A stretch of DNA of 64,000 bases from Pseudomonadota bacterium (GCA_021848825.1 JAJZTQ010000011.1:1051-65050), one strand, 5' to 3'; shown: positions 1-23,409, counted from the first letter of the stretch. Notes: a model not told the origin generated them from the letters alone. A program made the numbers and translations.

Positions 1-250
1 AACAATGTCAAGGTCGCCACCGCGAGCGGCCATCCGACGACTCGGTGAATCGGTCAATGCGAATGTAGCGGCCACGTCAACCGTCATTGGCAAGTTCCCG
101 CTCAATCAAACAAAGGCCGGATTGTTGATGCATTTCGTCTCAACATTCATAGGCGCGGCGTGATAACGCCGATGTGTTTGTAAAGTGTTGTACGTGAGGC
201 GATCTCGCAAAACGAAATCAATCCGGTTTCAAGGCTCATGAGGTCTTCTC

Positions 251-376
251 CTATCGGCGAGTAACCAGAGATTCGGTTGTATCGTAAAGTAGACACCAGA
301 CGGCAATTGCCGGAGCAAAAAATATGCGCGGCGTTTCCTTGGCACCCTTGATGAATCCTTCGATAAAATCACTCAT
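251..376 (-). CDS. Small hypothetical protein (41 aa, MSDFIEGF...)
   Basis: ATG at 376 directly after the upstream peptide's stop; last of a tightly coupled run of small ORFs. Confidence 0.5.
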   Translation of the reverse strand: MSDFIEGFIKGAKETPRIFFAPAIAVWCLLYDTTESLVTRR

Positions 377-377
377 A

Positions 378-500
378 TCAGACGCCCTCATCTTGATGTT
401 TCTTTCGATGGTCTTCTGCGCGATGGCTTGATGCATACCAGGACAACCCGACAAGGAATGCCGTCGCCAAAATCAAAACGACTTGGGATTCAATCGCCAT
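378..500 (-). CDS. Small single-TM peptide (40 aa, MAIESQVVLILATAFLVGLSWYASSHRAEDHRKKHQDEGV)
   Basis: Manual translation; RBS GAAGGAGG upstream; paralogue at 10696-10827. Confidence 0.65.
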   Translation of the reverse strand: MAIESQVVLILATAFLVGLSWYASSHRAEDHRKKHQDEGV

Positions 501-523
501 TTTCGTTTCCCTCCTTCACTCAA

Positions 524-655
524 TCAGGCTTGTGGCCGATCAGCATCTTCGTCTTTGCTGCGAATCCATAGAGCAAATCCGACAAACGCAATTGCACCGA
601 GCGATAGTTCGACACACATCAGGATCAGTCCAGTAGCGAGCGTCATATCAGGCAT
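524..655 (-). CDS. Small single-TM peptide (43 aa, MPDMTLATGLILMCVELSLGAIAFVGFALWIRSKDEDADRPQA)
   Basis: Manual translation; start overlaps upstream stop (ATGCCTGA); one hydrophobic helix. Confidence 0.55.
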   Translation of the reverse strand: MPDMTLATGLILMCVELSLGAIAFVGFALWIRSKDEDADRPQA

Positions 656-785
656 GCCTCACGTCTTGTTGCGGTTTATTTCTAGCCCCATCGCGTTTCT
701 GTAACCAAATCAGAAAGCCAGCAATACTGGCACCTCCATAGGCGATAATGGCCACCGACAGTATCATTCCGAGTGCAAGGCTCAT
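648..785 (-). CDS. Small single-TM peptide (45 aa, MSLALGMILSVAIIAYGGASIAGFLIWLQKRDGARNKPQQDVRHA)
   Basis: Manual translation; strong RBS GAGGAGG; hydrophobic helix followed by charged tail. Confidence 0.6.
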   Translation of the reverse strand: MSLALGMILSVAIIAYGGASIAGFLIWLQKRDGARNKPQQDVRHA

Positions 786-851
786 GACTTATCCTCCTCA
801 TGACTAACCGATTCTAGCTTGATGGCCGCTTGTTGTAAAAGACAGGTAAGC

Positions 852-1136
852 TCAGTTGCGACATTTTGGCTGCATGTCTGCCAAACCCTTTCCCGGTTTG
901 AAGCGCGGAACGAATTTCCCCGGCACGTCCACAGAATTCCCGTTGGCCGGGTTGCGACCTTTTCGTGGATTTCGGAAAGTCACCCCAAAAACTCCGAACC
1001 CCCGAATTTCGACGCGCCTTTGCTCAGAGATGGTGTTGGCAATGGCATCAAGAATGCCGTTCACGGCTAGACTTGCATCTCCCAGGCTAATTTCCTGCCG
1101 GTCGGCAATAATCTGGATTAGTTCGGATTTGGTCAT
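852..1136 (-). CDS. Element-encoded IHF-beta/HU family DNA-bending protein
   Basis: MTKSELI...RVEIRGFG.F...GRNP..G..V.VPGK..P.FKPGK signature; likely start ATG 1136. Confidence 0.88.
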   Translation of the reverse strand: MTKSELIQIIADRQEISLGDASLAVNGILDAIANTISEQRRVEIRGFGVFGVTFRNPRKGRNPANGNSVDVPGKFVPRFKPGKGLADMQPKCRN

Positions 1137-1754
1137 GGGAATTGATGATAATCGAATATATTGTTTTCTGCACCTGTAGGGTTCAGGCGATCCTGCACTT
1201 TCCAGTATTCCGTGAAACCTCAACCACCAAATCAGGACGGAACTGACTGTTTTCCATACTCCCACTCTGCATCATGTAGCTCCTGGGATTGCAGATTACC
1301 CGCGTCACTTTGGGATGCTTATAGCCGATGGAGGCCACAACAATCAAAGCAGCCAGAAACGGGCGAGAAACGCCATAGAATCGATTTTAAGGCTCCACCC
1401 CACCGAACCATACCCAGATCAGCAAATCACCCCAGAACAGCACAAAACGCGCCGAACCATTCCGAAACCCCGCCGACGCATCACCATCAAAGAAGTGATC
1501 TACTCGACAAAATCAGGTAAACATGGAATGAAGGAGAATTGGTTACTTCGCCCCGTACCTTTCCAGGTGCCTTGCCATTGAGTCAGCCGCACACCGTTTA
1601 CATCAGATAGCAATAACACGCCCCTAGTATGCCTAGACGGAGGCAGGTCAACCTCGCTGACCGGTATGTGCTCACGCCCGCAGGGCCGTACTGCCCTAAT
1701 CCAGTTTATTGGGAACAACAAAGTCTACAATAACCCCGGAGAAACGTGGTTGAT

Positions 1755-1802
1755 ATACTATATCTTGTGCTTTGACAATAACTCAGAATACATATATAGT
1801 TT
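1755..1802 (+). promoter_or_regulatory. Sigma70 promoter of the defence operon, overlapped by two NrdR-box-like sites
   Basis: TTGACA (1772-1777), 17-nt spacer, TATAGT (1795-1800); ATACTATATCTTGTGC at 1755 and a weaker AATACATATATAGTTT at 1787. Confidence 0.6.
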
Positions 1803-1853
1803 TATCACTCTCGGTGGCAGAGTGCTAATAGCCTGCCATCAATCCCAATCGAA

Positions 1854-3020
1854 ATGGGAGGTGCTGTGGCAGATATCCATCACGCAATTTTCTATCCGGT
1901 CGGTAACGGAGACACGACCCAAATCGTCCTAGCGAAAGGACGTCGCGTTCTGTTCGACTTCTGCAACCGCGACAAATCTGAAGACGCCCACACGCCGGAA
2001 ATCGACCTCAAGGCTCGGCTGAAGGAAGACCTGAAGGCCGCCAACCGCGACTACTTCGATGTCGTCGCATTCACGCACGCCGACCTCGATCACATCCAAG
2101 GCAGCACCGAGTTCTTCGAGTTGCAGCACGCGAAGAAGTACCAAGGCGACGGGCGGATCAAGATTCGAGAGTTGTGGGTGCCGGCGGCGATGCTGCTTGA
2201 AGAAGCGGACAACGATCATCAGACCGAGGAATACGTTCTGCTTCGCCAAGAGGCGCGGCACCGTCTGCTGGAGGGCAAGGACATCCTCGTCTTCTCGAAG
2301 CCGCAGGCATTGGTCGATTGGCTGGAGCCGCTGCTGAAAGCCCGCGGCGAATCGGCATCCGCGCGCGATCACCTCTTTATCGACGCCGGCACGATCGTGC
2401 CCGGCTTCACGCAGGCGAAAGATGGCGTCGAGTTCTTCTGCCACTCTCCTTTCATCAAGCACTGCGACGGCGGCGACATCATCCGCAACAGCGCCGCCTT
2501 GGTGTTCAACGTGCGGTTCAATGCCGACGGCGCCACCTACGACTATCTAGAGATCGGCGACGCGGAATACGGTGATCTGGAAGACATCGTTAGCACGACG
2601 CGCTACCACAAGAACGAGGATCGCCTGGCGTGGGACCTGTTCAACATCCCGCATCATTGCAGCTATCGCGCATTAAACGAGGACAAGGGCAAGGACGAAA
2701 CGGTCCCCGCGCCGCTGGTGAAGGACCTGCTGCTGATGGGAAAATCCGATGCCTACATCGTCAGTTGCAGCAAGCCGATCCCGGATGTCAAGGATTCGTA
2801 TGAGCAGGTCCAACCCCCGCACATCCAAGCCCGCAAGGCGTATGAGCGCTACTTGAAGGAAGTCGGCGGGCGCAAGTTCCTGGTCACGATGGAGGAGCCG
2901 AACGCCAACAAGCCCGAGCCGATCGTCTTCGAGATCGGCAGCGCCGGCGTGACCTGGAAGCGTTCGGCAACCATCGGCGCGCCGGCCATTTTGGCATCGA
3001 GGCCCCCGCGAGCTGGCTGA
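1854..3020 (+). CDS. ComEC-like metallo-beta-lactamase-fold hydrolase with C-terminal Gly tail
   Basis: PVGNGD, THADLDH, GD and PHH motifs; ends ...RPPRAG; probable GTG start at 1866 after GGAGG. Confidence 0.8.
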   Translation: MGGAVADIHHAIFYPVGNGDTTQIVLAKGRRVLFDFCNRDKSEDAHTPEIDLKARLKEDLKAANRDYFDVVAFTHADLDHIQGSTEFFELQHAKKYQGDGRIKIRELWVPAAMLLEEADNDHQTEEYVLLRQEARHRLLEGKDILVFSKPQALVDWLEPLLKARGESASARDHLFIDAGTIVPGFTQAKDGVEFFCHSPFIKHCDGGDIIRNSAALVFNVRFNADGATYDYLEIGDAEYGDLEDIVSTTRYHKNEDRLAWDLFNIPHHCSYRALNEDKGKDETVPAPLVKDLLLMGKSDAYIVSCSKPIPDVKDSYEQVQPPHIQARKAYERYLKEVGGRKFLVTMEEPNANKPEPIVFEIGSAGVTWKRSATIGAPAILASRPPRAG

Positions 3021-5266
3021 TGACCGATGCGTACCACGAACTGGCAAATGTCACAGAGGTCGGAAGCGCCGACGCACTGACCATTCCGCGTGCGCGCGCG
3101 CTGCTCGATGCCGTCCAGCGGCAACGCGACTATTCGTTAATCCAGCTTCTGCGGCATCCCGCAGACGGCGCGGCGACGCTCGAATGCTTGATCGTCGAAG
3201 TTGAGTGCGATGGCATCCCTCCGAAGAATCCAGTCGGCATCTGCTACCGGGAACGCTTGGCGCTGTGCGTCCCCAACGACCCCAAGCGGCTAATCGAAGT
3301 CCTGGCGCTGCGTCAGGATTTTCCGATTCTGATGCACCAGAATCAGGGTGTACACGGTGCGCCGGCCAGTCTGTGCCTGTACTTCGATCCGCCTGCTGCG
3401 GTGCTGCGCACCTGGACACCTGCGGCGTTCCTGCGCCGCATCCAGTGGTGGCTGGAAATGAGTGCTCGTGACGAGTTGCACCCGGCTGACCAGCCGGTTG
3501 AGCACCTGTTCTTCGCCAGCAAGTACGAACTGGTCCTGCCGTGGAATCTGGCCGAATTGCGCAAGAACCCGGCGTTACGCTTCATGGTGCTGCGGCAGGA
3601 AGAACGCCCCGATCAAGGGTTCACTTGCTTTCTGCAACCGATCTCGAAAGGTGCGCCGCAGGCAAAGACCTTTGCCCATATCGAGTTGACGCTGCCGCCC
3701 ATCGTGCATGGCTTCGTTGAGCGTGATCCCGCTACCCTCGGGCAGTTGGCAGACCTGCTGACACAGCGCAATGTGGATCTCATCACGCCGCTGCGAGCAA
3801 AGCTACAAGACAGCGTTGGCGAATCCGGTGCTGCCGCTTCGGCCGATGACAAGGCCACGGTCATCTTGCTTCACATTCCGATCAAACGGAGCGCCGACGC
3901 GGAACCCGACGGCATCACGCACCGGGCGTTCCTCGTGCCGATCGGCGCACTTGAACTCGGCGTCGCCACCGGCGCACTGCTGATACACCAAGGGCGTTAC
4001 TTCAAGGACGTGATGAACCAGCAGCCCTCGACGGCGTGGCAAAACCAGCCCGTCTTGCCGATGGACGTACTGGTGCAGAACGATGCGGCGGCCGCGAGAC
4101 GCCAGTCGGGCATCTTTGACGAAGGTCCGAAGGCCGTCCTGATCGGAGCCGGATCGCTCGGCAGCGCATTGCTCAACCTGTGGGGACGCAGCGGTTGGGG
4201 GCGCTGGACGGTCATCGACAAGGATCACATCAAACCCCACAACCTCTCAAGGCACGCCGCCTACATACAACACATCGGCGAGACGAAAGCGACGGTCGTC
4301 GCCGGACTGCACGCTGGTGCGACGGAAGGCGCGACCGAAGTAGTGCCTATCGTCGCCGATGCCACCGACCTTGCGCTGGAGTCAGTCGCGCACGCGCTCG
4401 CCGCCGCGAGTCTTGTGGTCGATGCCTCGACAACTCTCGAATATCCGCGTGCGGCAAGTGGGGTCGATACGCTGCCGCGCCATTGCTCGGCATTCATCAC
4501 ACCCGACGGCAACGCGGCAGTGCTGCTTGTGGAGGATGCCGAACGCGCGCACCGCCTGCGCACGCTCGAAGCCCAGTATTACCGCGCCCTGATTCAAGAG
4601 GACTGGGGCAGAACTCACCTCAGCGGTCACGCCAACACGTTCTGGAGCGGCGCGAGTTGCCGCGACATCTCGGCGGTTCTGCCGTACTCGCGCATCCTGG
4701 GCCAAGCGAGCACGCTGGCCGAACAGGTTCAGGCCGCGACGACCAATAAGGACGCCCTTATACGCACGTGGCAACGAGACCCGGCGAGCGGCGCCATCAC
4801 AGTGCATGATGTCCCCGTTCTGCCAGAGAGGCGCATCCCGCTCGACGACCTTGACGTGTTCATCGACGATGGCGTCGAACAACAACTACGGGAGCTGCGC
4901 CGCCAGGCTTTCCCAAACGAGACCGGCGGCGTGCTGCTCGGCTACTACGACTTCAACATCAAAGCCGTGGTGATCGTCGCCGGACTGCCGGCTCCGCCCG
5001 ACAGCAAAGCCAGTCGAGATTCCTTCGAGCGCGGTATCACTGGCTTGGCCGAAGCGGCGAAGGATGCCAGCTTGCGCACGGCCGGCATGGTCAGCTACAT
5101 CGGCGAATGGCACAGCCACCCACCCGGCCACTCCGCCTCGCCCAGTGGGCATGATCTGATGCAACTCATTCAGTTGGCGCTTGGGATGTCCGACGACGGC
5201 CTGCCGGCCGTCCAGCTCATCGTCGGCGAGCACGATCTTCAAGTCCTTCAGGGCGAGGTGAAGTGA
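3020..5266 (+). CDS. E2-E1(ThiF)-JAB fusion protein (Cap2+Cap3-like)
   Basis: E2 HQN...LCLY; E1 GAGSLGS and IDKD...HNLSRH; JAB ETGG...YIGEWHSHP...SPSGHD. Confidence 0.9.
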   Translation: MTDAYHELANVTEVGSADALTIPRARALLDAVQRQRDYSLIQLLRHPADGAATLECLIVEVECDGIPPKNPVGICYRERLALCVPNDPKRLIEVLALRQDFPILMHQNQGVHGAPASLCLYFDPPAAVLRTWTPAAFLRRIQWWLEMSARDELHPADQPVEHLFFASKYELVLPWNLAELRKNPALRFMVLRQEERPDQGFTCFLQPISKGAPQAKTFAHIELTLPPIVHGFVERDPATLGQLADLLTQRNVDLITPLRAKLQDSVGESGAAASADDKATVILLHIPIKRSADAEPDGITHRAFLVPIGALELGVATGALLIHQGRYFKDVMNQQPSTAWQNQPVLPMDVLVQNDAAAARRQSGIFDEGPKAVLIGAGSLGSALLNLWGRSGWGRWTVIDKDHIKPHNLSRHAAYIQHIGETKATVVAGLHAGATEGATEVVPIVADATDLALESVAHALAAASLVVDASTTLEYPRAASGVDTLPRHCSAFITPDGNAAVLLVEDAERAHRLRTLEAQYYRALIQEDWGRTHLSGHANTFWSGASCRDISAVLPYSRILGQASTLAEQVQAATTNKDALIRTWQRDPASGAITVHDVPVLPERRIPLDDLDVFIDDGVEQQLRELRRQAFPNETGGVLLGYYDFNIKAVVIVAGLPAPPDSKASRDSFERGITGLAEAAKDASLRTAGMVSYIGEWHSHPPGHSASPSGHDLMQLIQLALGMSDDGLPAVQLIVGEHDLQVLQGEVK

Positions 5267-5267
5267 C

Positions 5268-6146
5268 GTGTCCGGACAGATGATTCTGAAAATATGGGAT
5301 GTGCAGCATGGCGCATGTGCCATGCTCACGCACCTCTCGGTCCAGGGAATCGAAGGCCGGCTCGCGATGATCGACTCCGGTCACAATCAAGAAACGGGCT
5401 GGAAACCGAGCACCTACATCCGGCACTACTTGAAGCGGAGCGTGCTGGACTACCTGTTCGTCACCAATGCAGACCTCGATCACATCAGCGATCTGAACAA
5501 TCTGTGGCGCGAGGGAATCGCGGTCTCCACCTTCATTCGCAACCGCAGCGTGTCGCCCGAAGTGATGAAAATAATCAAGGAGGTCGGTGGCGAGTTGACC
5601 GACGACATCCAGCGATACTTGGACCTTCACGCCAACTACGTCTATCCGGTCGATACTCCATTCGATCAGAACATGGGCGGCATCACGGTAAAGACATTCT
5701 GGAACTCGACGCCACGCTTCTACGACACGAACAATCTAAGCCTGGTTGCATTCTTCAAGTTCGGAACCTTCAAGATTCTGTTCCCTGGCGATCTTGAGGA
5801 GGACGGCTGGCTCGCGCTGCTGGAGCAACCGGACTTTCGTGCTGAGTTGGCCGGGACGACCGTGCTCGTGGCCTCTCATCACGGACGCGAAAACGGCTAT
5901 TGTGAGGCGCTATTCAACTACATCCATCCTCTCGCCATCGTGATGTCCGATAAGGCGATCGTCCACGACACGCAACGCATGACGCAGACGTATCGCCAGC
6001 GCGTGGTCGATCATTGGCCGAACGGCGTTTCGGTCAAGACGACAGGCAAGCAGCGGCATGTACTGACGACGCGGCGCGATGGGTGGATTCAATTCGTCGT
6101 CGATGAATTTGGTAACTTCGACATCTACACCGAGAACAACGGATGA
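5268..6146 (+). CDS. Second ComEC-like MBL-fold hydrolase
   Basis: WDVQHG, IDSG, TNADLDH, FPGD and ASHHG motifs. Confidence 0.8.
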   Translation: MSGQMILKIWDVQHGACAMLTHLSVQGIEGRLAMIDSGHNQETGWKPSTYIRHYLKRSVLDYLFVTNADLDHISDLNNLWREGIAVSTFIRNRSVSPEVMKIIKEVGGELTDDIQRYLDLHANYVYPVDTPFDQNMGGITVKTFWNSTPRFYDTNNLSLVAFFKFGTFKILFPGDLEEDGWLALLEQPDFRAELAGTTVLVASHHGRENGYCEALFNYIHPLAIVMSDKAIVHDTQRMTQTYRQRVVDHWPNGVSVKTTGKQRHVLTTRRDGWIQFVVDEFGNFDIYTENNG

Positions 6147-6823
6147 GAGACCCCAAAGACTACAGCAGCAAGACGTTGAAGGGTCGCAACCTTGCATGGC
6201 TCGTAGCGACGCTCGTTCTCGATGTCCTGATCCTCCTGGTACTCGCCTTTCATACGGCGATCCAAGACTTGACGCCGACCTCCATCGCGGCCGTCCGAAC
6301 CAGCCTCTCGGTCCTGCTGCCGATTCCGGTCTTGATCCTGTCGTCACTGATCTCGGCCGACCACAAGGCTATCTTGGTTTTCTGGCGCCTCAAGTTCCCG
6401 CTTCCCGGATCGCGCGCGTTCTCCGTGTACGCGCCAGCGGATCACCGCATCGACTTGGCGAAATTGAAGAAGAACGTTGGAGCGTTTCCCGCAGAGCCGC
6501 ACGAACAGAACGCCAAGTGGTACGTCCTGTACAAGCAGGTCGATTCGGACCCCTCGGTCGCAGACAGCCACAAGAACTATCTGCTATTCCGCGACATCGC
6601 GGCAATGTCGCTATTGCTGGTGCCTGTGCTGCCCATTGCCATGTACCTCATAGGCATTGATGCGACACGCATTCTGATATCGGCGGCAGTGTTCCTTTGC
6701 CAGTATCTGATTACCGCATTCAGCGCACGGACGACAGGCATACGCTTCGTGCAGAACGTGCTGGCCGTGCACGCCAGCCGGAAAGTGACTGCCTCACGGC
6801 CAACAGGGACGGCAAAGGCGTAG
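6143..6823 (+). CDS. Multi-pass (about 4 TM) membrane protein, putative defence effector
   Basis: Four hydrophobic segments; ATGA overlap with upstream gene. Confidence 0.7.
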   Translation: MRDPKDYSSKTLKGRNLAWLVATLVLDVLILLVLAFHTAIQDLTPTSIAAVRTSLSVLLPIPVLILSSLISADHKAILVFWRLKFPLPGSRAFSVYAPADHRIDLAKLKKNVGAFPAEPHEQNAKWYVLYKQVDSDPSVADSHKNYLLFRDIAAMSLLLVPVLPIAMYLIGIDATRILISAAVFLCQYLITAFSARTTGIRFVQNVLAVHASRKVTASRPTGTAKA

Positions 6824-7075
6824 CCCGCACCAGACTCGCCCTTCTATGCCGCAACAAGTTGTCGAATTAGGTACTGACTGCTCCTGGCCAACCGCGGGCA
6901 TAATGTTCAGGGCGAAAGAAAACTCCGCTGCAATTTACTCAGCGGGGTTTATTCTAGTTCGTTTTGTACATCAACTACCACATATCGCTACTTCACTTGA
7001 TAATCCACACACCCTTCGCCAACGGCTAGAACCTCAGGTGCGGGCGAATGACTGTGATGGCAGAGCCGCCCATCG

Positions 7076-7534
7076 TCAAGCTACCGCCCGACGCTTGCTC
7101 TCTGCCTGCATCGCAAAGCCAACCGACAACAGCGCCCTTGTCAGGTGATATGCCTCCTGTCGAATCCCGACCAGGCGATTCTCCGTTTCCTCGACTATCT
7201 CCTTCTCCCACTCATGTGCGTACTTGTGCAGCTTGCTGATCGTATAGCCAAACGACCTGGCAGGTTTCGTGATCGCCTCCTTCTTGTCGAAGAATTTTCC
7301 ATCCTTCCCCTTCCCTACCCATGCTACCGCATACCATTCAGACCGTACCGAATTCCCATCCTTGATGCTTCTCAACCTGAGCCTGTTCCGGTTCTGCACA
7401 CCTGGCCTCTCCCCTTCCATGCGTAGCACCGCCGCCCAGTATCGTTCTGCTATACTCTCAACCTCATGGTGCAATTCTTCCATGCGCCTTTCCAGGGCTT
7501 CCTTGATTTCGGGATTTGTTGTCACCGCCCACAT
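7076..7534 (-). CDS. mobI: MobI-like conjugative transfer (oriT-recognition) protein
   Basis: YW...LRLR...S...EW...Y...L...A.EWE..IV..TE..L..IR pattern of IncC/SXT MobI; start ATG 7534 or GTG 7525. Confidence 0.65.
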   Translation of the reverse strand: MWAVTTNPEIKEALERRMEELHHEVESIAERYWAAVLRMEGERPGVQNRNRLRLRSIKDGNSVRSEWYAVAWVGKGKDGKFFDKKEAITKPARSFGYTISKLHKYAHEWEKEIVEETENRLVGIRQEAYHLTRALLSVGFAMQAESKRRAVA

Positions 7535-7643
7535 TCCTCCGTAAAGATTCACAGCTCAATTGGTAGCCTGTCCAGGGTAGCCAATCCCAACACTCTTACT
7601 CCGTTGCAATCTGCCAGCAAATCACAACTATCATTCCAGAATG

Positions 7644-7843
7644 ATCGTTGAGTAACACTAGCATTTTTCCCCGTTATCGTGTTGGTATTCCATGAATTTC
7701 ATCACGATCAGCACGAGTTCAATACCCAAATAATTATCGTTGAGTAATACTAGCATCTTTCCCCGTTATCGTGTCGATACATGGTATCATCGCAATGATA
7801 GTTGAGTAATGCCATTATTTTTCCCCGTTATCGTGTTGGTATT
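7644..7843. repeat. Three ~43-bp imperfect direct repeats upstream of mobI (candidate oriT region)
   Basis: GTTGAGTAA...TTTCCCCGTTATCGTGT starting at 7647, 7739 and 7801. Confidence 0.85.
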
Positions 7844-7934
7844 TCCAAAATTATATCGGCTTGGAAAAAAGCATCCTGGCACCGCATGAATAAAGTGCCA
7901 GGAAAATCGGCCTGATTCCCCAGTGGGAGGGATT

Positions 7935-8150
7935 ATGTTGGTGAAATTCGAGACCAGGAAACGCGGCTATATTTTGCAGCTTGAGCACGATCTGCTCGGC
8001 GATCTTGTGTTGACCCGTTACTGGTACGGACTGCAAAACAACCGGCATGGCTCCTGCATGCAAGTGTTCCTCAACGAGGAAGATGCGCACCGTCAGTTCG
8101 AAAAGGTTGTGCGTATGAGACTGAGAAATGGGTATGAAATCTCTGAATGA
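7935..8150 (+). CDS. Small WGR-domain protein
   Basis: R.Y...L..DL.G...L.R.W pattern; RBS GGGAGG. Confidence 0.6.
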   Translation: MLVKFETRKRGYILQLEHDLLGDLVLTRYWYGLQNNRHGSCMQVFLNEEDAHRQFEKVVRMRLRNGYEISE

Positions 8151-8152
8151 CC

Positions 8153-9130
8153 TCAATGCGCCCCCTCTTTACGGCCCCGGTAATATTGGGCGATATCGCG
8201 CTTGAAAAGACCCCACAGCATCGCCATCGCGCCACCGGCGATAAGCGCGTTTTCGTCCTCTATCGCTGGGCTGATTGCAACCACCGCCTTGTAGTGCTTC
8301 ACCAAATTCTTCACCATGAGCATGCCAACTTCGTCATCGATACCTTCAATCGTGAAATTTGAAGCGCCCGTTACGGCGGAATCCAGCTTCTGCACAACCC
8401 TGTTGCGTCCAACCAGGATCGGCTCAAATACGGCCTTGATGTCGGCGAAGGTCGCGCCATAGAACTCGTACTTCGCCGGCATGTTTACCTTTAGAGCGAG
8501 TATTTCACAGCCCATCCGGCGAAATTCATTGTATCCCCCCATCGCCTTGGTGAGCAAAAACACCGCGTCACGGTCGAAATTACTTTCCCGTGCGATATAG
8601 ACGCCGATCCGGTTGCTCGACTTGACCTTTATCTTGCCATCGCGTCGCTTGATGAAGCAAATGTACCCATCCCGCCATCCCTGGTTGGATGATACGGCAG
8701 CAAGCGCCCCCGCCGCCCCGCCCTCGTAAAGCCAAACATTATCAAGCACCTGGCCATTTGTCAGCAGGTATGCAGCCGACGACTGCTGTGACCGGCGCTC
8801 ACAGTCCAGAAAATACTTGCGAACCGCTCGCCCCTTCTCATTCCTCTCCACCATGGCAAGCTCTTTTGCCATGTCGAGAGTGATGCAGTATTCAACGGAA
8901 CGACGGTCTCCTCCGCGCCCCTCGGTTTGATTCCCCCGTTTGGGGGAGCGCAGTTCGAAGTCCTTTCCTTCCTCGAATCCGTATGCCTTGATCCGATTCT
9001 TGATCCAGTCGGTAAAGTCCTTCCCAACCTCCAGCACGGAATGCAGCTCACGCGCATCCACCACCAGCATTGACACACCCGCGATCTTTCCTTCCATCAC
9101 TGGAACGAGTTGTTTATCAGCTTCGCTCAT
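8153..9130 (-). CDS. AntA/AntB phage antirepressor-family protein
   Basis: VDARELH..L.V.KDF..WI..RI..YGF...DF; Y..TLDMAKELAMVERNEKG..VRKYF. Confidence 0.85.
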   Translation of the reverse strand: MSEADKQLVPVMEGKIAGVSMLVVDARELHSVLEVGKDFTDWIKNRIKAYGFEEGKDFELRSPKRGNQTEGRGGDRRSVEYCITLDMAKELAMVERNEKGRAVRKYFLDCERRSQQSSAAYLLTNGQVLDNVWLYEGGAAGALAAVSSNQGWRDGYICFIKRRDGKIKVKSSNRIGVYIARESNFDRDAVFLLTKAMGGYNEFRRMGCEILALKVNMPAKYEFYGATFADIKAVFEPILVGRNRVVQKLDSAVTGASNFTIEGIDDEVGMLMVKNLVKHYKAVVAISPAIEDENALIAGGAMAMLWGLFKRDIAQYYRGRKEGAH

Positions 9131-9175
9131 GTTGAATCCTCCTTGTTTGTTCAAGATTGCAAGCGACAAATTGGC

Positions 9176-9230
9176 AAAAAAATGGGCACCAATTCCCTTG
9201 CGGGAAATGATGCCCCCCTCGTATGGGTTG
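9176..9230 (-). promoter_or_regulatory. Conserved leader hairpin with GCAA loop and U-tract (copy A)
   Basis: Minus strand GGGCATCA-TTTCCC-GCAA-GGGAAT-TGGTGCCC-A-T7, upstream of antA. Confidence 0.65.
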
Positions 9231-9248
9231 AAATTACTTCACTTTCAC

Positions 9249-10541
9249 TTACTCGTCATCGAAGCCATCCCATTTCGCCAGATCGATTTCCTCGATGTCA
9301 CCGAACGGTTGATAGCCAGGATACTCGCCATGCTCGCGGCACCATTGAAGAAGCTCCAATGCTGCGCGATACTTCTTTCGGCCCGTCTCGATCATTGCTG
9401 CGCTTGCCTTGTACACCGCGGCCTCGTGAGGTCCGTTTTTCTCGCTGGGCAGGAAGTAGAAAGGCAGAGTCAAACCCGTCAGTTCCTTTACAGCATCAGT
9501 GTAGAAAGCTGCTTGCAGATCGTAGCTGTACTTCCCGATTGATCTGGCAAACCCGGTAATACTGGCATCCAGTGTGGATTTGACATCCAGAATGCCGGTC
9601 AAGGTTTTACCATCGTCCATCAGAAAATCCAGCCTGCACTTGCAACGAATCCCAGTTACCGGATCGTCCCAGTATGCAGTCAGTTCCGGCTTTCCCTTTT
9701 GAAGCAACTTTCGCGCTCCTTTATGGGATAGGGCTTTTTGCCGCATTTTGATGATGGCCTGCATATGCTCGTCCGTGAGGATGATCTTTTCGCCGTAAAC
9801 CGCCTCGAAAACATCATCCCTGAAGCGAAACTCGGAATTTGCATCAGCAGCCTTGATCGCCGCCTTCAGCTCGTCCTTTGTCAGCGCCTCGACACGAATG
9901 CCCAAGGTAATTGCCGCTGCCTTGTAATCGTCAAGCGATTGCAGGGCTCCTGCAAGTTTCTCCTGGGTCATTGCGGCAAGTTCAGCCTGCACATCTTCTT
10001 TGAAGCGAAACTCGGAATTTGCATCAGCAGCTTTGATCGCCGCCTTCAGCTCGTCCTTTTTGAGTTTGGCATCAACCCCCAAGCGTGCCGCCGCTGCCTT
10101 GTAGTCATCCATCGACTGCAAGGTATTTTCGAAGGCACCAAGGGAATACCGCGCCATTTCAGCCTGAACATCGTCCTTGAAGCGAAACTCGGAATTTGCA
10201 TCAGCGGCCTTGATCGCCGCCTTCAGCTCGTCCTTGCCAGGCACGCCGTAAGCGACACCCAACTTGTCCGCCGCTGCCTTGTAATCGTCAAACGATTGCA
10301 GGGTTCCAGCGAACACTTCTTCCTTGACGACATCATAGGTGGTCTCGAACAGCCACGGCTCAAGGATAGCGGCATGAACCGCTGTCCCGAACTGCATAGC
10401 CTGTGTGGGTTCGATCTTCTCGTTGATGTATTCCGCGAAATGAGCAGGCGACCGGAGCATACGCACCAAGGCTGAATGCCCTACCGCCGTCTTGTCCGCG
10501 TGATATTCGTCGGCTGAAATATTGATGAATTTGTCATGCAT
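9249..10541 (-). CDS. RecE/exonuclease VIII-like PD-(D/E)xK nuclease (DUF3799 type) with three inserted repeats
   Basis: YHA...S.S...SPAH; A..FGTA.HAA.LEP; CKCR.D...DVKST; Y..QAAFY; likely start ATG 10541. Confidence 0.85.
   Translation of the reverse strand: MHDKFINISADEYHADKTAVGHSALVRMLRSPAHFAEYINEKIEPTQAMQFGTAVHAAILEPWLFETTYDVVKEEVFAGTLQSFDDYKAAADKLGVAYGVPGKDELKAAIKAADANSEFRFKDDVQAEMARYSLGAFENTLQSMDDYKAAAARLGVDAKLKKDELKAAIKAADANSEFRFKEDVQAELAAMTQEKLAGALQSLDDYKAAAITLGIRVEALTKDELKAAIKAADANSEFRFRDDVFEAVYGEKIILTDEHMQAIIKMRQKALSHKGARKLLQKGKPELTAYWDDPVTGIRCKCRLDFLMDDGKTLTGILDVKSTLDASITGFARSIGKYSYDLQAAFYTDAVKELTGLTLPFYFLPSEKNGPHEAAVYKASAAMIETGRKKYRAALELLQWCREHGEYPGYQPFGDIEEIDLAKWDGFDDE
9821..10302 (-). 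repeat. Three in-frame ~59-60 aa repeats (periods 180 and 177 bp) inside the nuclease
   Basis: LQS.DDYKAAA..LG....KDELKAAIKAADANSEFRF x3; DNA copies at 9821, 10001 and 10178. Confidence 0.92.
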
Positions 10542-10567
10542 GATGTATCTCCTTTTCGATGAAACGT

Positions 10568-10619
10568 AAAAAAAAGGGACACCATGCCCCTTGCGGGAAG
10601 TGATGTCCCGCAAGGGTTG
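10568..10619 (-). promoter_or_regulatory. Conserved leader hairpin with GCAA loop and U-tract (copy B)
   Basis: Minus strand CAACCCTTGCGGGACATCACTTCCC-GCAA-GGGGCATGGTGTCCC-T8. Confidence 0.65.
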
Positions 10620-10695
10620 AACTACGAAATACTGGGATCGATTGAAGATCAACCGATCTGGATGATGCCGGTTTCCCGGCGATGGTTAAACGCAA

Positions 10696-10827
10696 TCAGG
10701 CGTGATTTACGTCATCCTGATGTTTCTTGCCATGACGATCTTCAGCACGATGATGCTTTGCGTAGATCGAGATCAACAGCAAAATGAAGGTTGCCAGACC
10801 AAAGGCTACCAGCGAATCAGTTGCCAT
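10696..10827 (-). CDS. Small single-TM peptide (43 aa, MATDSLVAFGLATFILLLISIYAKHHRAEDRHGKKHQDDVNHA)
   Basis: RBS AGGAAGG; paralogue of 378-500. Confidence 0.65.
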   Translation of the reverse strand: MATDSLVAFGLATFILLLISIYAKHHRAEDRHGKKHQDDVNHA

Positions 10828-10891
10828 TGCCGCTACCTTCCTTTCGCAGATAGATACCAGTAACAATACACAATATGAGCATAATGAGCAT
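10817..10891 (-). CDS. Putative 24-aa hydrophobic peptide (MLIMLILCIVTGIYLRKEGSGNGN)
   Basis: RBS AAGGAGG upstream; stop overlaps next start. Confidence 0.4.
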   Translation of the reverse strand: MLIMLILCIVTGIYLRKEGSGNGN

Positions 10892-10918
10892 AACAAGGTG
10901 CCTCCTTTTTGAAACAAG

Positions 10919-10966
10919 AAAAAGGGACACCATGGCCCTTGCGGGAAATAGCGTCCCGCTTGGGTG
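10919..10966 (-). promoter_or_regulatory. Conserved leader hairpin with GCAA loop and U-tract (copy C)
   Basis: Minus strand CACCCAAGCGGGACGCTATTTCCC-GCAA-GGGCCATGGTGTCCC-T5. Confidence 0.65.
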
Positions 10967-11353
10967 AATATCAACTACATTCGATCAGCCTGACGACTGA
11001 AGTGGTCCTGGGCGACTTGTCCCAGGTCTGCTTGTTTTAGAAGGCCATCTACCTTCGTCAACACTGCAATAAGCAAGTGAATTGATAGCAATAGGCTAAA
11101 TCTGATCCCTATGTTTGTCAACAAGCAAAGAAGAACCAAAATTTACCGCCCCGGATGCCCCGGTAATGCTCCAGGAACAATTGCGACTTTTTGGCTGCAT
11201 ACCAAGCTTGGCTTGTCATACGCTTTACAGGCTTATCCTGACGATGAGCTTTCGGAGTGCCTATTCATTGATTACATTACTTTTACAGTATATTGATACT
11301 ATTTTTACGTAATTGTGATACTATTAATACGTCAATCATGCATTGGAGCGATT

Positions 11354-11986
11354 ATGATAGTGTCATGCCTGAATACCAAAGGTGGCGTTGGCAAAACGAC
11401 AGCATCACTTAATCTCGCTGTTTCTCGCGCTCTCGAAGGCCGCTCCGTGCTTGCCGTCGATGGAGACCGACAAGGTTCACTGATCACGGCCTTGGCAAAC
11501 AGGGAATGGGAGCCCGCCATTGCTGCCGCTCATTACCCTGACGGTCAGATACTTCGCCAACAAGTCACAATGGCGAAAGGTCGATACGATGACATCATCA
11601 TCGATGCTGGTGGAAGGGATAACACGGCACTCCGGGCTGCGCTGATGCTTGCCGATCTAGTTCTGATCCCGTTTCTCCCGCGCTCGTTCGACGTATGGGC
11701 ACTGGAAGACATGGCACGACTGCTCGAAGAGGCCAGGGCAACCCGAGATATCCGTGCATTGGCATTTCTATCCATGGCTGACAGCCGTGGGAATGACAAT
11801 GCAGAAGCGGCAGAATCCATACCAGAAGGAATCGAGTACCTGGGCACATCCATCGGTAGACGGAAGGCGATTGCCGATGCGGCAGGAAGAGGTAAAGGGA
11901 TTCTGGAAGAGCCTAATCGAGACCTAAAGGCTTCTGATGAGATAAGGCGGTTTGTTGCGTCAATATACCGTTATGATAATCTCTAA
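11354..11986 (+). CDS. parA: ParA family partition ATPase (short, type Ib)
   Basis: KGGVGKTT deviant Walker A, VDGD.Q, IIDAGGRD. Confidence 0.9.
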   Translation: MIVSCLNTKGGVGKTTASLNLAVSRALEGRSVLAVDGDRQGSLITALANREWEPAIAAAHYPDGQILRQQVTMAKGRYDDIIIDAGGRDNTALRAALMLADLVLIPFLPRSFDVWALEDMARLLEEARATRDIRALAFLSMADSRGNDNAEAAESIPEGIEYLGTSIGRRKAIADAAGRGKGILEEPNRDLKASDEIRRFVASIYRYDNL

Positions 11987-12016
11987 AATCAGTAAACTTT
12001 ACGGAATAACTACATC

Positions 12017-12253
12017 ATGGCTATTACCCCCCCAAAGAAACCTGCAACGGCTGATGAATTCATTGCCGGAGCGCCCGATGGCAAATCTGCTGAACCATCC
12101 AAGCAGATCAAAACGGCGGGGAGGAAAGCCATCATAACGCTCTCCATCGATCACGCCCTGCTTGCCAAAGTCGATGCCTGGGCAAAAGCGCGAGGCATGA
12201 GCAGGGCTGCCGCGATCAGTTTTGCCGTCAGCAATTTGTTTCTGAGTGAATGA
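12017..12253 (+). CDS. Small ribbon-helix-helix/CopG partition partner
   Basis: ADEFI.GA N-terminus and ITLSID..LL..VD..AK..GMSRAA.I; follows parA. Confidence 0.75.
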   Translation: MAITPPKKPATADEFIAGAPDGKSAEPSKQIKTAGRKAIITLSIDHALLAKVDAWAKARGMSRAAAISFAVSNLFLSE

Positions 12254-12293
12254 TTGTTCCAGAAGTACTACGTCCACTACCGAGGAGAAAAAC

Positions 12294-12485
12294 ATGAGTC
12301 AAGACCTGATCGACATCATCGACCGTGAAGAGCGCGTTTTCAAATCCTTCCAGGCGGCCATCGAACTGATGGAAGGTAGCCCGTCTCAGGAAGTCCGCGA
12401 AGCGCAAACGCTTCTCGCATTGCTGGTCGATGAATATCAACCTTGTCGAGCCGCCATGCGGCAACAAGTCGAGGCCCGGTCATGA
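12294..12485 (+). CDS. Hypothetical protein
   Basis: RBS GAGGAG; ATGA overlap with next gene. Confidence 0.5.
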   Translation: MSQDLIDIIDREERVFKSFQAAIELMEGSPSQEVREAQTLLALLVDEYQPCRAAMRQQVEARS

Positions 12486-13354
12486 ACATGCCCTTTAAAA
12501 AGGGCCACACGGCGCTCGTATTGGCCGGATTCGGAATCCAGGCACATGCCCAAATCCAAAACACCATCATAAGCGACAGCTACCGTTTGCAGTCAGCAGA
12601 TATACAGAACTTCTCCAAGGAAACACCCTGTTATCTTAGAGGCATCGAAAAACTCAATGACGCTTTTGGGAAGAAGGTCTTGCAGCTATTCAAAGACGAA
12701 GGGTTCAAAATCACGGACGATAAAAACGCCGAATGCGAAATAAATGTCGGCGGATGGATAAATTCTGACTCCGGTGGCAAATCGTTCTATTCGGATGAGC
12801 CTGACAAATGGGCGGAAAAAGAGGTCAATCCAAATCCGAAGGTTGCGGCGGCGATCAATGAAGCCCAAAATAAAGCTACTGCGGCCCGTCAGGGCGAGCC
12901 CATCGGCGGAAACGGTATAAACCTGCTCACACAAGCTGGTGGGCTATTTGGCGGTAACGGGGCTGCAATTGCGGGTGGAGCTGGTGTCGTGATCAATCTT
13001 CTCAGCATTTTCAACGGCGGCAACTCAAGTCCAAGTGGGGTGGCCGAAGTCAACGGGACAATGAGGTTTGGCCGGTACTTCCCAACAACGCAAGTGAGCG
13101 CCGAGATTTATACGGCTTCGAACGTTCCAGAAAAGCCGGAGGATTTGTTCTATGCCGGATACAAGGCTGTTATCGAGGATATGAAACTATGCATCTACAA
13201 ATACCATGTGAAAAATAATCTGCCGTTTGATATGCCGGTTTCTGCCGATATGGCGGCAAAAGGGAAGGAATGGGCACCCCATCCCCCAGCGGCGGTTTCG
13301 GCATCGCCTGGCACGAGCTCTTTTGTCGCTGCAAAACCTGATGCTACTCAGTGA
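12482..13354 (+). CDS. Hypothetical exported protein
   Basis: Signal peptide ending AHA; Gly-rich hydrophobic middle segment. Confidence 0.65.
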   Translation: MNMPFKKGHTALVLAGFGIQAHAQIQNTIISDSYRLQSADIQNFSKETPCYLRGIEKLNDAFGKKVLQLFKDEGFKITDDKNAECEINVGGWINSDSGGKSFYSDEPDKWAEKEVNPNPKVAAAINEAQNKATAARQGEPIGGNGINLLTQAGGLFGGNGAAIAGGAGVVINLLSIFNGGNSSPSGVAEVNGTMRFGRYFPTTQVSAEIYTASNVPEKPEDLFYAGYKAVIEDMKLCIYKYHVKNNLPFDMPVSADMAAKGKEWAPHPPAAVSASPGTSSFVAAKPDATQ

Positions 13355-13357
13355 GGA

Positions 13358-13657
13358 GTGAATAGGGTCATGAAAGACATTATTTCAGTGAATAGACAAT
13401 TTTTCATTCTCGCAAGAGAGCGGGCGAGAAACAAGCCAGCAGACGTGTCTTTCGATGTTGTGACAGGCTTAAGCGCATCGGCTTTGAACAGGATCGCTCA
13501 ACTCGATATGGAAGAAATCGAGGTATTGGCTCAATCCGAAATAGGGCTTTTAACCCTCAGAATCTCCGAAAAGCAGATTGACACTATCTTGTCTGACATG
13601 CGTGAGAAGAAACGCACTGCCTACCTTGTCGCATCCTCACAATTGCAAAAATCATAA
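13358..13657 (+). CDS. FlhD-like transcriptional activator subunit (SetD/AcaD/SgaD type)
   Basis: DI..VN..F..LAR......GLS......IA.L....I..LA.S pattern; size ~100 aa; element context. Confidence 0.65.
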   Translation: MNRVMKDIISVNRQFFILARERARNKPADVSFDVVTGLSASALNRIAQLDMEEIEVLAQSEIGLLTLRISEKQIDTILSDMREKKRTAYLVASSQLQKS

Positions 13658-13668
13658 CTGGTGACAAA

Positions 13669-14124
13669 ATGACGATGATACTGATACTGATGGCCATAAG
13701 CTTTATCGTGATTCAATCGATCAATGAAAGCCCCCGCAAGAAGCAGCATATTGCATTATGGTTATCGTACTGCTGCACGATTCTGGGCATCACCTTGATC
13801 ACCAATGCCAGAGTCGGGCTCCTTCTCTCGGTATTGACCTTCCTGATCGCCCAGCTATTCCCGCAAATCCGGGCCGCTCGTAGACGAGTAATCGCCAAAA
13901 TCTTATACCCAACAGGTAGGCATTCAGTCAGAAGAAAGCGAATTCAGAGATGGCCCCATTTCTTACATTCTATAGATACACCTAGTACGAATTCCAATAT
14001 TGAGTTCGATTCTTCCTGCATGAATTCGAATTTTGGTCATGATTTCGCCCAGGGATATGGAACAGGCGTCTCTGACGGCTCGCTCGGTTCAACAATGGGG
14101 GCTGGTGCCAGTCACAAGTGGTAA
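13669..14124 (+). CDS. Small inner-membrane protein convergent on traG (entry-exclusion candidate)
   Basis: Three N-terminal hydrophobic segments; position like eex of SXT. Confidence 0.5.
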   Translation: MTMILILMAISFIVIQSINESPRKKQHIALWLSYCCTILGITLITNARVGLLLSVLTFLIAQLFPQIRAARRRVIAKILYPTGRHSVRRKRIQRWPHFLHSIDTPSTNSNIEFDSSCMNSNFGHDFAQGYGTGVSDGSLGSTMGAGASHKW

Positions 14125-14140
14125 TTGGCTTGCCGTTCGC

Positions 14141-17680: not shown

Positions 17681-17691
17681 ATTACCCCCTG

Positions 17692-19104: not shown

Positions 19105-19122
19105 GATTTTTCCTTTTCAGAT

Positions 19123-19542
19123 TTACATGCCTTGTTTAAGCATCGGCACAATCTTGCCAATGTCCATCCCTTCAAGCGGTGGCTCGCCGTTCTTGCAGTA
19201 GTTGATCCCGATGTTCATGGCAAAAGTAATCGGCTTTACTTTTATGTCGAGGACATTTGCCTGTTCAAATCGAAGATTAAGTCGGCTGCAACCAGGCTGA
19301 TTGAATTGCCTGATGGTGGTCACGGTTGCGATCACAGGTGCGGTAGACCTGGTAGTTGCCCTGAATTTCCCTGCAATGGGGCCGATCATTTCGCCCTGGA
19401 TCGTCGCGCCCGGATTATCGAGCGCCTGAAGCAGCAATGGCTTCACGCTGGCGTACTGATCAAGGTTAGATGCAAGGGATATGCTGCTAGCCATAAGCAG
19501 CCCTATTCCAAGCACGATCATTGTTAACGGTGATTTGTTCAT
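19123..19542 (-). CDS. Exported hypothetical protein in the tra operon
   Basis: Signal peptide, two Cys, lies between traN and traH. Confidence 0.65.
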   Translation of the reverse strand: MNKSPLTMIVLGIGLLMASSISLASNLDQYASVKPLLLQALDNPGATIQGEMIGPIAGKFRATTRSTAPVIATVTTIRQFNQPGCSRLNLRFEQANVLDIKVKPITFAMNIGINYCKNGEPPLEGMDIGKIVPMLKQGM

Positions 19543-19571
19543 GTCGCTGTCCTTTCAAATGATTCGAAAAA

Positions 19572-21359: not shown

Positions 21360-21574
21360 AGTCCCATCACGATGGCTTCGACGATGACGCAAATCGTCAT
21401 GGTGCCTATCCCTCGCCACATCCATAAATTGAATGCCTCATCGAATCGGCGAGATACACCTTCCGGGTCGGCCTCCCATTCCGCATTTGCGCGGTCCAAA
21501 TAGTCATGAAATCGCCGGATTTCCGCTGCAATGGCCGACCCGACTGCCCAGGCTGATTGTTTGAGTTTTTTCAT
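21350..21574 (-). CDS. Small hypothetical protein with C-terminal TM
   Basis: RBS GAGAGG; overlaps traN start. Confidence 0.55.
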   Translation of the reverse strand: MKKLKQSAWAVGSAIAAEIRRFHDYLDRANAEWEADPEGVSRRFDEAFNLWMWRGIGTMTICVIVEAIVMGLWP

Positions 21575-21623
21575 GGTTTTTCCTCTCAGTTTTCAAATGG
21601 ACAAGATGCTTGTTGGCAAACGA

Positions 21624-21824
21624 TCAATGAACCTTTCTCGAAAGCTCGATCAAAATATCGATACGACACATGACCAACTCATCAAATAGCAAATCCAAAA
21701 GTTCGGCCACCATACGTAATTCAGGGGATGCGCTGGTTCGCATCCGGGTGATGGCACTGCTTAACTGTCTGAAGAGTCGATCTTCGCGGTCGAGGGTATC
21801 AAGTGGGTCAAGCGCCATGATCAT
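21624..21824 (-). CDS. Small hypothetical protein
   Basis: ORF with RBS AAGGA, co-oriented with neighbours. Confidence 0.45.
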   Translation of the reverse strand: MIMALDPLDTLDREDRLFRQLSSAITRMRTSASPELRMVAELLDLLFDELVMCRIDILIELSRKVH

Positions 21825-21929
21825 TCATCCTTGGTCGGCAAAAAGAACATTTATCCACTAGGGCATCGCCTCCAACTATCGGGAAAGATAGAGGGAAAAA
21901 CCTAACGGCATAACCTATCGGTTTAGGGG

Positions 21930-22025: not shown

Positions 22026-22089
22026 GATAACTTCCGCCGCCCACAGCCTTGTTCACATTCTTGATAGGTGAATGCATAGGGGGTCCGAT

Positions 22090-23324: not shown

Positions 23325-23409
23325 GTCGCTCTCCTCGAGGGCAGAAGGGCGACCGAATATTGCTCGCGGCCATCCTTCTCCCGCGAATCGTCAAAATACA
23401 AATTGTTAT

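Follow-up and report, generated by a model that had tools for sequence, protein, structure and literature searches.

A four-gene cassette in a 64,000-nucleotide stretch of DNA from a Pseudomonadota bacterium (GCA_021848825.1, JAJZTQ010000011.1:1051-65050; the whole stretch is hereafter called the window) was analyzed, and the cassette (1794-6877) almost certainly belongs to the known anti-phage system 6A-MBL, in which a metallo-beta-lactamase (MBL) fold enzyme is encoded directly before a protein with E2, E1 and JAB domains. We put at about 60% the probability that this 6A-MBL operon is the cargo of an integrative and conjugative element (ICE), that its first product MBL1, which ends in a glycine (Gly) tail, is conjugated, and that genes 3 and 4 supply the output. 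The two-gene core is not new, because the products of genes 1 and 2 passed the NCBIfam equivalog models named for 6A-MBL. The effector slot behind the core and the family of four-transmembrane (4-TM) proteins found in it may be undescribed parts of the system.

A four-gene operon with a 6A-MBL core

A preliminary description of this DNA had reported four closely packed genes of raised GC content, a single polypeptide with E2, E1 and JAB domains and intact motifs, the lack of a CD-NTase (cGAS/DncV-like nucleotidyltransferase) and of a ubiquitin-like gene, and a flexible tail on gene 1, and all of these features were recovered. The conserved 5.1-kb cassette was delimited by blastn at 1794..6877 on the plus strand and contained all four genes on that strand, which were located by listing of open reading frames (ORFs). 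MBL1, the 6A-MBL MBL-fold enzyme and a ComEC-like metallo-hydrolase, was encoded at 1854..3020 (388 aa, ATG start), the E2-E1-JAB triple-module protein Cap2_3 at 3020..5266 (748 aa, ATG), a second ComEC-like MBL-fold protein without flexible tail, MBL2, at 5268..6146 (292 aa, GTG), and the all-helical 4-TM (2+2) membrane protein, TM, at 6143..6823 (226 aa, ATG). MBL1 and Cap2_3 overlapped by 1 nt, Cap2_3 and MBL2 were separated by a 1-nt spacer, and MBL2 and TM overlapped by 4 nt. The GC content was 0.59-0.65 over 2001-5250 and 0.55-0.58 over 5251-6750, compared to about 0.50 in the flanks (~0.49-0.52 upstream and 0.44-0.53 at 7251-8250), and that of the chromosomal part of the window was ~0.56-0.57.

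No match to a CD-NTase or ubiquitin-like family was found among the four proteins in Pfam, PADLOC and NCBIfam, and the intergenic space within 1854-6823 was too small for any further gene. The small flanking ORFs at 1161-1520, 6846-7148 and 7145-7426 had no Pfam match and all lay outside the conserved block.

The mention in the preliminary description of a class named '6A' or '6A-MBL' was right, since genes 1 and 2 passed the equivalog models of that name. MBL1 scored 398.5 bits against NF058524.1 (cut-off 220), covering profile positions 1-346 of 346, and Cap2_3 scored 702.1 bits against NF058523.1 (cut-off 320). The family of MBL1, the domain order of Cap2_3, the MBL-first adjacency on the same strand and the catalytic residues were all present. 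Van den Berg et al. (2024, Cell Host Microbe 32:1427) are said, in papers that cite them, to have reported the anti-phage activity of 6A-MBL. Passages of PMC11601596, PMC13276650 and the preprint 10.1101/2025.09.30.679545 credit this activity to that study; the preprint counts 6A-MBL among the known jumbo-phage defences of P. aeruginosa, 'MBL pathways' are stated in a passage of PMC11601596 to conjugate their enzyme via a fused E2-E1, and 6A-MBL is mentioned in passages of PMC13276650 and PMC13700489. The layout of genes 1 and 2 was that of row 6a in Table 1 of Iyer, Burroughs and Aravind (2006; PMC1779556), a row that lists a triple-module E2-E1-JAB protein adjoining a specialised metallo-beta-lactamase, is the source of the 6A name, and describes the operon as 'usually with two genes'.

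Active sites of Cap2_3

Three domains were assigned to Cap2_3 by Pfam, and their key residues were invariant in an alignment of 33 Cap2_3 sequences. The E2 domain (Prok-E2_A, residues 25-178, 154 bits; 3092..3553) carried invariant H106 alongside C119. The E1 adenylation core (ThiF, residues 371-470; 4130..4429) kept G376-x-G378-x-x-G381, D400, R411, K423 and D468. The JAMM motif of the JAB/JAMM peptidase domain (Prok-JAB, residues 619-735; 4874..5224) was intact, with E634, H698, H700, S709 and D712 invariant. Only two Cys were invariant throughout, C119 in the E2 domain and C547 in the E1 module, the latter encoded at nt 4658-4660, downstream of the adenylation core. In the PDB, residues 342-471 aligned to the Cap2 chains 7to3/7tsq, which were the best E1 matches, and the JAB domain matched the 'Peptidase' chain 9ild_A.

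An invariant glycine on a disordered MBL1 tail

The translated C-terminus of MBL1 read ...APAILASRPPRAG, in agreement with the tail quoted in the preliminary description. Twelve residues were invariant in 34 MBL1 sequences, namely H75, D77, D79, H80, H173, H197, D236, H267, H268, R386, A387 and G388, so that both the complete set of metal ligands (H75-x-D77-x-D79-H80, H173, H197, D236 and H267-H268) and the terminal R-A-G were kept. R-A-G was found in all 44 genome loci that hold the 3' end of MBL1. In 33 of them the protein stopped right after Gly, and in the other 11 it extended 1-7 residues further (S, A, RG, KK, GQ, WRAG, YRAG or CNDTRVL). The same motif occurred in 25 of 25 metagenome copies with a match reaching the C-terminus, two of them extended and one only 42% identical to MBL1. 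Altogether 69 of 69 homologues, 13 with extensions, ended in or contained R-A-G, in a set that includes near-duplicates and thus fewer independent events. A terminal Gly that varies among homologues had been named in the preliminary description as an outcome that would speak against its proposal, and this outcome did not arise.

In the AlphaFold2 (AF2) model of MBL1 (pLDDT 82.4, pTM 0.86), residues 372-388, a tail of 17 residues, fell below pLDDT 50. A terminal Gly that never varies, sits on a disordered tail and in some copies is hidden behind a few more residues is by analogy the pattern of ubiquitin-like precursors that are trimmed by a JAB peptidase.

The best fold match of MBL1 in the PDB was 9ic4, the beta-lactamase-like domain of ComEC (E 1.6e-11, TMt 0.63), and the second structural match was phosphorylcholine esterase. 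Its relatives in PADLOC were MBL proteins of other defence systems (RTasMBL, LmuA and Avs1a). MBL-fold enzymes are hydrolases, and MBL1 was most likely a two-metal phosphodiesterase or nuclease, as predicted from its fold and ligands. Compared to Cap2_3, MBL1 was more conserved, with a mean column identity of 80% vs 69%, and in L041 the two proteins had identities of 73% and 45%.

Predicted docking of MBL1 on the E2 domain

Complex prediction with residues 1-605 of Cap2_3 and MBL1 gave scores of 0.72, 0.73 and 0.72, and the best of three controls gave 0.00. Of 80 solved complexes 58 attained the score mark, as did 2 of 110 mismatched pairs; this calibration is only roughly valid here, where own alignments were used. 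The runs shared at least 60% of contacts with a partner pLDDT of at least 84. The interface consisted of Cap2_3 residues 62, 64-71 and 76 and MBL1 residues 227, 298-299, 340-341 and 362-370, which placed residues 62-76 of the E2 domain against the final beta-hairpin of MBL1 (362-370) and neighbouring positions. Binding of MBL1 to the Cap2_3 E2 domain is supported by this model. Since MBL1 has no relation to cGAS, the passing score is unlikely to reproduce what the predictor had learned from 7to3.

The preliminary description had proposed that MBL1 is the conjugated moiety. The invariant R-A-G with its extensions, the disordered tail and the passing complex model agreed with this proposal, so that comparison and modelling give it good support, and the tail was not placed in the E1 site; we consider it probable that MBL1 is a substrate of Cap2_3 through its Gly.

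A slot with changing content behind Cap2_3

Species-representative genomes were scanned and yielded 47 loci with a Cap2_3 homologue (44-96% identity), and MBL1 stood directly upstream in 44 of them. The exceptions were a locus in which MBL1 was deleted (L004), one with no MBL1 upstream (L009) and one cut by the contig end (L047). Behind Cap2_3 the content varied. MBL2 and TM were found in 21 of the 47 loci, a disrupted MBL2 with TM in 1, TM only in 3, a patatin-like phospholipase in 13, an MBL with a patatin in 1, another PDC-M48B-type MBL in 3, an unrelated 2+2 TM protein in 1 and nothing assignable in 3 (L020, L039 and L044), and in 1 the contig ended there. A patatin thus occupied the slot in 14 of 47 loci overall. 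The state of the slot changed at least 11 times on a Cap2_3 tree built from 33 of the 47 loci, near-duplicates and truncated rows being left out. A core that is conserved while the slot behind it switches between patatin and TM is, by analogy, a pattern of the antiphage signalling system based on cyclic oligonucleotides (CBASS).

The linkage of the four genes was examined at the nucleotide level and from the side of TM. An unbroken blastn match over 1794-6877, with 93.2-93.7% nucleotide identity and identical end points, was found in the four closest relatives (L001, L002, L003 and L005), whose flanks were unrelated, and therefore the four genes move as one cassette. A metagenome scan seeded with TM returned 48 loci, 29 of them with at least 3.2 kb upstream; a full Cap2_3 together with MBL1 lay upstream in 25 of these 29 and a partial Cap2_3 in 2. 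Cap2_3 was present directly upstream in 27 of 27 assessable loci with a TM at least 62% identical, 6 of which had no MBL2. Additionally, on a contig of 41% GC (L078:37-2026), a 64%-identical TM followed a separate Cap2 (E1-E2, 225.7 bits, cut by the contig) and Cap3 (JAB, 168.4 bits), with the upstream substrate gene lying off the contig. Members of the TM family therefore also occur outside the context of a fused Cap2_3.

The preliminary description had further taken MBL2 and the membrane protein as effectors. The swappable slot, the joint transfer and the linkage of TM to Cap2_3 speak for this part, and distant MBL and TM pairs without Cap2_3 speak against it; on balance, we lean slightly towards genes 3 and 4 being functionally coupled effectors.

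Properties of MBL2 and TM

MBL2 matched the B component of the PADLOC candidate system PDC-M48 (PDC-M48B, PDLC04674) with 182.6 bits (E 2.2e-54), a family for which PADLOC gives no curated cut-off. It fell below the Pfam Lactamase_B cut-off (21.8 vs 22.7 bits) and had weak sequence matches to ComEC/Rec2. Residues D69, D71, H72, N155, D175, H204 and H205 were common to MBL1 and to distant relatives, and the MBL metal motifs were kept. MBL2 ended in Gly in the window and in 21 of 21 genome loci examined, where the string GGATGA (6141-6146 in the window), comprising the Gly codon, the stop and the overlapping ATG of TM, was conserved. As a second substrate of Cap2_3, MBL2 was set aside, since its last conserved strand is followed by just 3-4 residues and its Gly codon lies inside the GGATGA overlap.

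Hydropathy placed the hydrophobic segments of TM at residues 17-35, 54-72, 147-165 and 168-186 in a 2+2 layout, separated by a strongly conserved polar loop (residues 75-151) with the invariant Lys K75 and further polar residues. The AF2 model was all-helical (pLDDT 74.2) and returned 0 Foldseek matches at E <= 0.001. TM had no match in Pfam, NCBIfam, PADLOC or PHROGs, its homologues formed 316 clusters of which none had a Pfam domain, and the ESM Atlas search gave unnamed clusters only. One 'RDD family protein' was the sole informative name among 120 listed homologues. No CBASS effector model of PADLOC was matched by MBL2 or TM.

Other third genes were compared in the same way. The MBLs behind Cap2_3 in L019 and L029 matched another PDC-M48B model with 335 and 343 bits. 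Proteins with a 2+2 layout like that of gene 4 were also seen at L021:8253-9047 (264 aa, behind Cap2_3) and L029:9531-10361 (276 aa, behind the MBL), with no BLAST similarity to gene 4 and no family match, and these may be remote homologues or analogues of it. NCBIfam held no names for the linked patatins or the other third genes.

Divergent and decaying copies

Several loci departed from the common order. At L004:1962-2630, a 222-aa ORF directly before Cap2_3 was unrelated to MBL1 except in its last eight residues (...PPRAG), and this locus was either a natural deletion or fusion, or an assembly artefact of a metagenome-assembled genome (MAG). The ORF of 1144 aa in frame with Cap2_3 in L009 was considered as an MBL1-Cap2_3 fusion and rejected, its first 396 residues having no similarity to MBL1, and it was regarded as either a false frame in GC-rich sequence or a sign of a rearranged contig. 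In L025 (about 8280-9740) a 462-aa ORF lay between Cap2_3 and TM, with only MBL2 residues 231-291 left; in L040 (about 7340-8250) the Cap2_3 frame was broken after residue 394; and in L016 Cap2_3 ended early. These three look like decaying copies.

Cassettes with 92-96% protein identity were found in records that bear the labels Bradyrhizobium, Fulvimonas, Rhodocyclaceae and Lamprocystis; a MAG under the label Bifidobacterium had a 74% copy, and further copies came from MAGs assigned to Thermoflexus and Gloeobacterales (L001, L002, L005, L025, L046 and others). The wide spread of labels reflects either recent horizontal transfer on a wide scale or binning errors in some of the MAGs. Defence genes stood just downstream of two related operons, PD-T7-5 (387 bits) at L029:10368-11417 and PDC-S02 (92.6 bits) at L035:5232-6026, and these two loci are defence-island settings.

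Genomic setting and expression signals

Upstream of the cassette lay an HU-like gene (852-1265, minus strand), and downstream MobI (7076-7552, minus strand) was followed by genes for an AntA antirepressor, a DUF3799 PDDEXK-like protein, ParA, TraG_N, TraH, TraN, RepA_C and the tyrosine integrase of the conjugative element (24064-25101, minus strand), the whole series spanning 7076-25101. Housekeeping genes (MCP, purA, a HisS-family gene, hflK, der and lon) began at about 25.4 kb. From this succession of conjugative and then housekeeping genes, the cassette is taken as ICE cargo, with the element running off the contig start and one ICE end near 25.2 kb. No tRNA was found near 25.2 kb; tRNA-Asp and tRNA-Val lay at 59.4-60.0 kb. 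A megablast search of window 1-12000 against plasmids gave no match.

At the start of the contig (contig C38:1-1155, minus strand; L049:1-1155), an ORF of at least 385 aa ran off the contig end, its 5' end reaching window positions 1-105. It had SPPY and FxGxG-type motifs, and its best matches in the PDB were N4-cytosine and N6-adenine DNA methyltransferases (2zie, 1.2e-22; also RsrI, PvuII and CcrM). This beta-class N4/N6 DNA methyltransferase ORF beside the cassette may encode a restriction-modification enzyme or an orphan methylase.

A sigma-70-like promoter, TTGACA-17-TATAGT, was located at 1772..1800 on the plus strand, 54 nt upstream of MBL1; it is a consensus match only (11 of 12 positions), and 3 such sites occurred in the region vs 2.7 expected from shuffles. 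The start of the conserved block (1794) fell within its -10 element. Just beyond the other end of the block, a terminator-like element, a hairpin of 8 bp with one G-T pair and a loop of 9 nt and then a T-rich run, was found by eye at 6923..6955 on the plus strand, having been missed by the scanner because of its loop limit of 8. The Rfam scan of window 1-12000 gave no family, and the PHROGs search gave nothing informative.

In the search of sequencing runs, at most 0.15 of the sampled words were shared. Four RNA-library runs from four studies yielded contigs 90-97% alike over most of the cassette, which spanned the junctions at 3020 (X2 record 1), 5267 (X4 record 21) and 6143 (X4 record 23); these contigs come from relatives and possibly from DNA, so that they show neither transcription nor a single transcript, and the uncovered parts carry no meaning.

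Discussion

The window operon shares with 6A-MBL the MBL-fold gene directly upstream of the E2-E1-JAB polypeptide and the lack of a cyclase and of a ubiquitin-like protein (Ubl), and it differs by the addition of MBL2 and the 4-TM protein, whose genes look co-transcribed and go beyond the two-model definition of the system. Type II CBASS has homologous E2-E1 and JAB chemistry, as reflected in the Cap2 chains found for the E1 module, and in both systems a tailed substrate enzyme is encoded before the ligase and a downstream slot follows that holds a patatin in loci related to the window. However, the window operon has no CD-NTase and its Cap2 and Cap3 domains are fused; the Cap3 model NF050170.1 reached only 28.4 bits vs a cut-off of 200, the best PADLOC E1-E2 match was 70.1 bits, the linked patatins matched no PADLOC CBASS effector model, and no cyclic-nucleotide chemistry was evident. 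The bacterial ubiquitination-like systems Bil and Bub also use E1, E2 and JAB-type components and, according to a passage of PMC11601596, take part in phage defence or are linked to it. A separate small Ubl is conjugated there, in contrast to the window, where the enzyme itself bears the Gly tail and no Ubl family match was found for the four proteins in Pfam, PADLOC and NCBIfam.

The resemblance to the ComEC/Rec2 nuclease domain was structural for MBL1 and a weak sequence match for MBL2, with shared HH and D-x-D-H motifs; MBL1 differs in that it is soluble, stands alone and carries a Gly-ended tail of 17 residues, and the sequence identity is about 16%. With PDC-M48 the window shares the match of MBL2 to the B component. 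The difference is that MBL2 sits inside a 6A-MBL operon and that the A component was not found: PDC-M48A had no match in MBL1 or TM (P0001 and P0004) or in the scanned neighbours of related MBLs (E limits 0.1 or 0.01), and it was absent from the best 25 of 53 families matched by Cap2_3 (P0002).

In the mechanism we propose, MBL1, as a ComEC-like two-metal phosphodiesterase or nuclease, would dock on the E2 domain of Cap2_3 via the beta-hairpin that precedes its tail. The E1 module would adenylate Gly388, and the acyl group would pass to C547 in the E1 module, then to C119 in the E2 domain, and then to an amine of a target. The JAB domain would trim the residues past Gly in precursor forms and would also reverse conjugates. 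Conjugation would prime or relocate MBL1 in infection, as with cGAS in type II CBASS. MBL2 and the 4-TM protein would fill the swappable output slot, which elsewhere holds a patatin or TM alone, and would act by membrane damage, perhaps together with nucleic-acid damage, leading to abortive infection. MBL1 may work either through a diffusible signal or by direct action.

A more general form of this proposal is tentative, and we regard it as rather doubtful: 6A-MBL would be a three-layer, CBASS-like pathway and not a system of two genes, with a Gly-tailed ComEC-like phosphodiesterase that responds to infection, a fused E2-E1-JAB protein that primes it by conjugation, and a swappable membrane-directed output, and the 4-TM protein would be an undescribed effector family shared between ubiquitin-like defence systems. 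It may also be the target of the conjugation and thereby draw MBL1 to the membrane. The output variants would then be a patatin, the new 4-TM family, or an MBL with a 4-TM protein, the 4-TM protein also occurring after the split Cap2 and Cap3 of L078.

A number of points weigh against a conjugated MBL1 with genes 3 and 4 as its output. The entire case is computational. In the complex model the body of MBL1 was placed on the E2 domain with no confident contact of its tail in the E1 site, although the missing placement says nothing either way. The putative catalytic C119 and C547 were equated by position only, the alignment spanning residues 342-471, with the catalytic Cys that a passage of the Cap2 preprint gives as C109 (E2) and C548 (E1). 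No signal-making chemistry was evident in MBL1, and the linked patatins had no match to a CBASS effector model in PADLOC. The two-gene core may be self-sufficient, given the wording 'usually two genes' in row 6a of PMC1779556 and the two NCBIfam models, and three loci (L020, L039 and L044) had no assignable gene downstream. Finally, distant TM homologues (37-45% identity) paired with PDC-M48B-type MBLs in other settings. One such pair (L090:4169-5898) had no Cap2_3 or recognised partner within 5 kb upstream, another (L088:51-3232) stood behind a 510-aa protein with weak matches to AriA/OLD/GajA-like ATPases, and two were in reverse order (L087 and L093) on contigs too short to tell whether Cap2_3 is near.

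These distant pairs, the three loci without a third gene and the match of MBL2 to PDC-M48B would all be expected if the transcription unit held two independent systems, a self-sufficient 6A-MBL and a hitch-hiking MBL and TM of PDC-M48 type; the two-gene description of 6a and the two models fit this as well, and defence genes often cluster, as PD-T7-5 and PDC-S02 do in L029 and L035. We consider this unlikely, since Cap2_3 lay directly upstream in every assessable locus with a close TM, the genes follow one another with a 1-nt spacer and a 4-nt overlap, GGATGA being kept in 21 of 21 genome loci, TM alone followed Cap2_3 in 3 of the genome loci and 6 of the metagenome loci and came after the split Cap2 and Cap3 in L078, a patatin took the same slot in 14 loci, and no PDC-M48A partner appeared in any protein scanned. 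The content of the slot also bears on a different explanation, that MBL1 is the sole effector, a nuclease unleashed or targeted by conjugation, with MBL2 and TM as accessory proteins such as regulators, a factor for immunity or anchoring, or the target of conjugation. The ComEC nuclease domain as its nearest fold, its defence relatives RTasMBL, LmuA and Avs1a and its conservation above that of Cap2_3 agree with such a role, and the TM loop, with invariant K75 and polar residues, could receive or bind MBL1. Nevertheless, a slot that swapped patatin and TM at least 11 times looks like an output slot and not like that of a regulator, which leaves MBL1 as the only effector with a small probability. 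Among the killing effectors typical of CBASS are patatin phospholipases and small TM proteins.

The position of the cassette among the ICE genes MobI, ParA, TraG/H/N, RepA_C and integrase, and the action of ComEC-like MBLs on DNA, could in turn point away from defence altogether, to a module for maintenance of the conjugative element or DNA processing that uses a ubiquitin-like ligase. This seems highly improbable, because unrelated flanks surround the cassette in many genomes, MBL1 and Cap2_3 both pass models that carry the name of an anti-phage system, and the citing papers, in the passages mentioned above, report anti-phage activity of the family. A 6A-MBL operon carried by an ICE, with MBL1 conjugated through its tail and genes 3 and 4 as output, is the preferred reading.

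The invariant R-A-G, the two invariant Cys and the swappable slot make the 6A-MBL mechanism directly testable, as they point to the residues for mutation and to the sub-constructs worth comparing, and the extended MBL1 tails are natural candidate substrates for the JAB peptidase. Under a curated two-gene definition, an output module present in about half of the family can go unnoticed. Transfer between distant bacteria leaves the cassette intact, and in the window it sits on a conjugative element.

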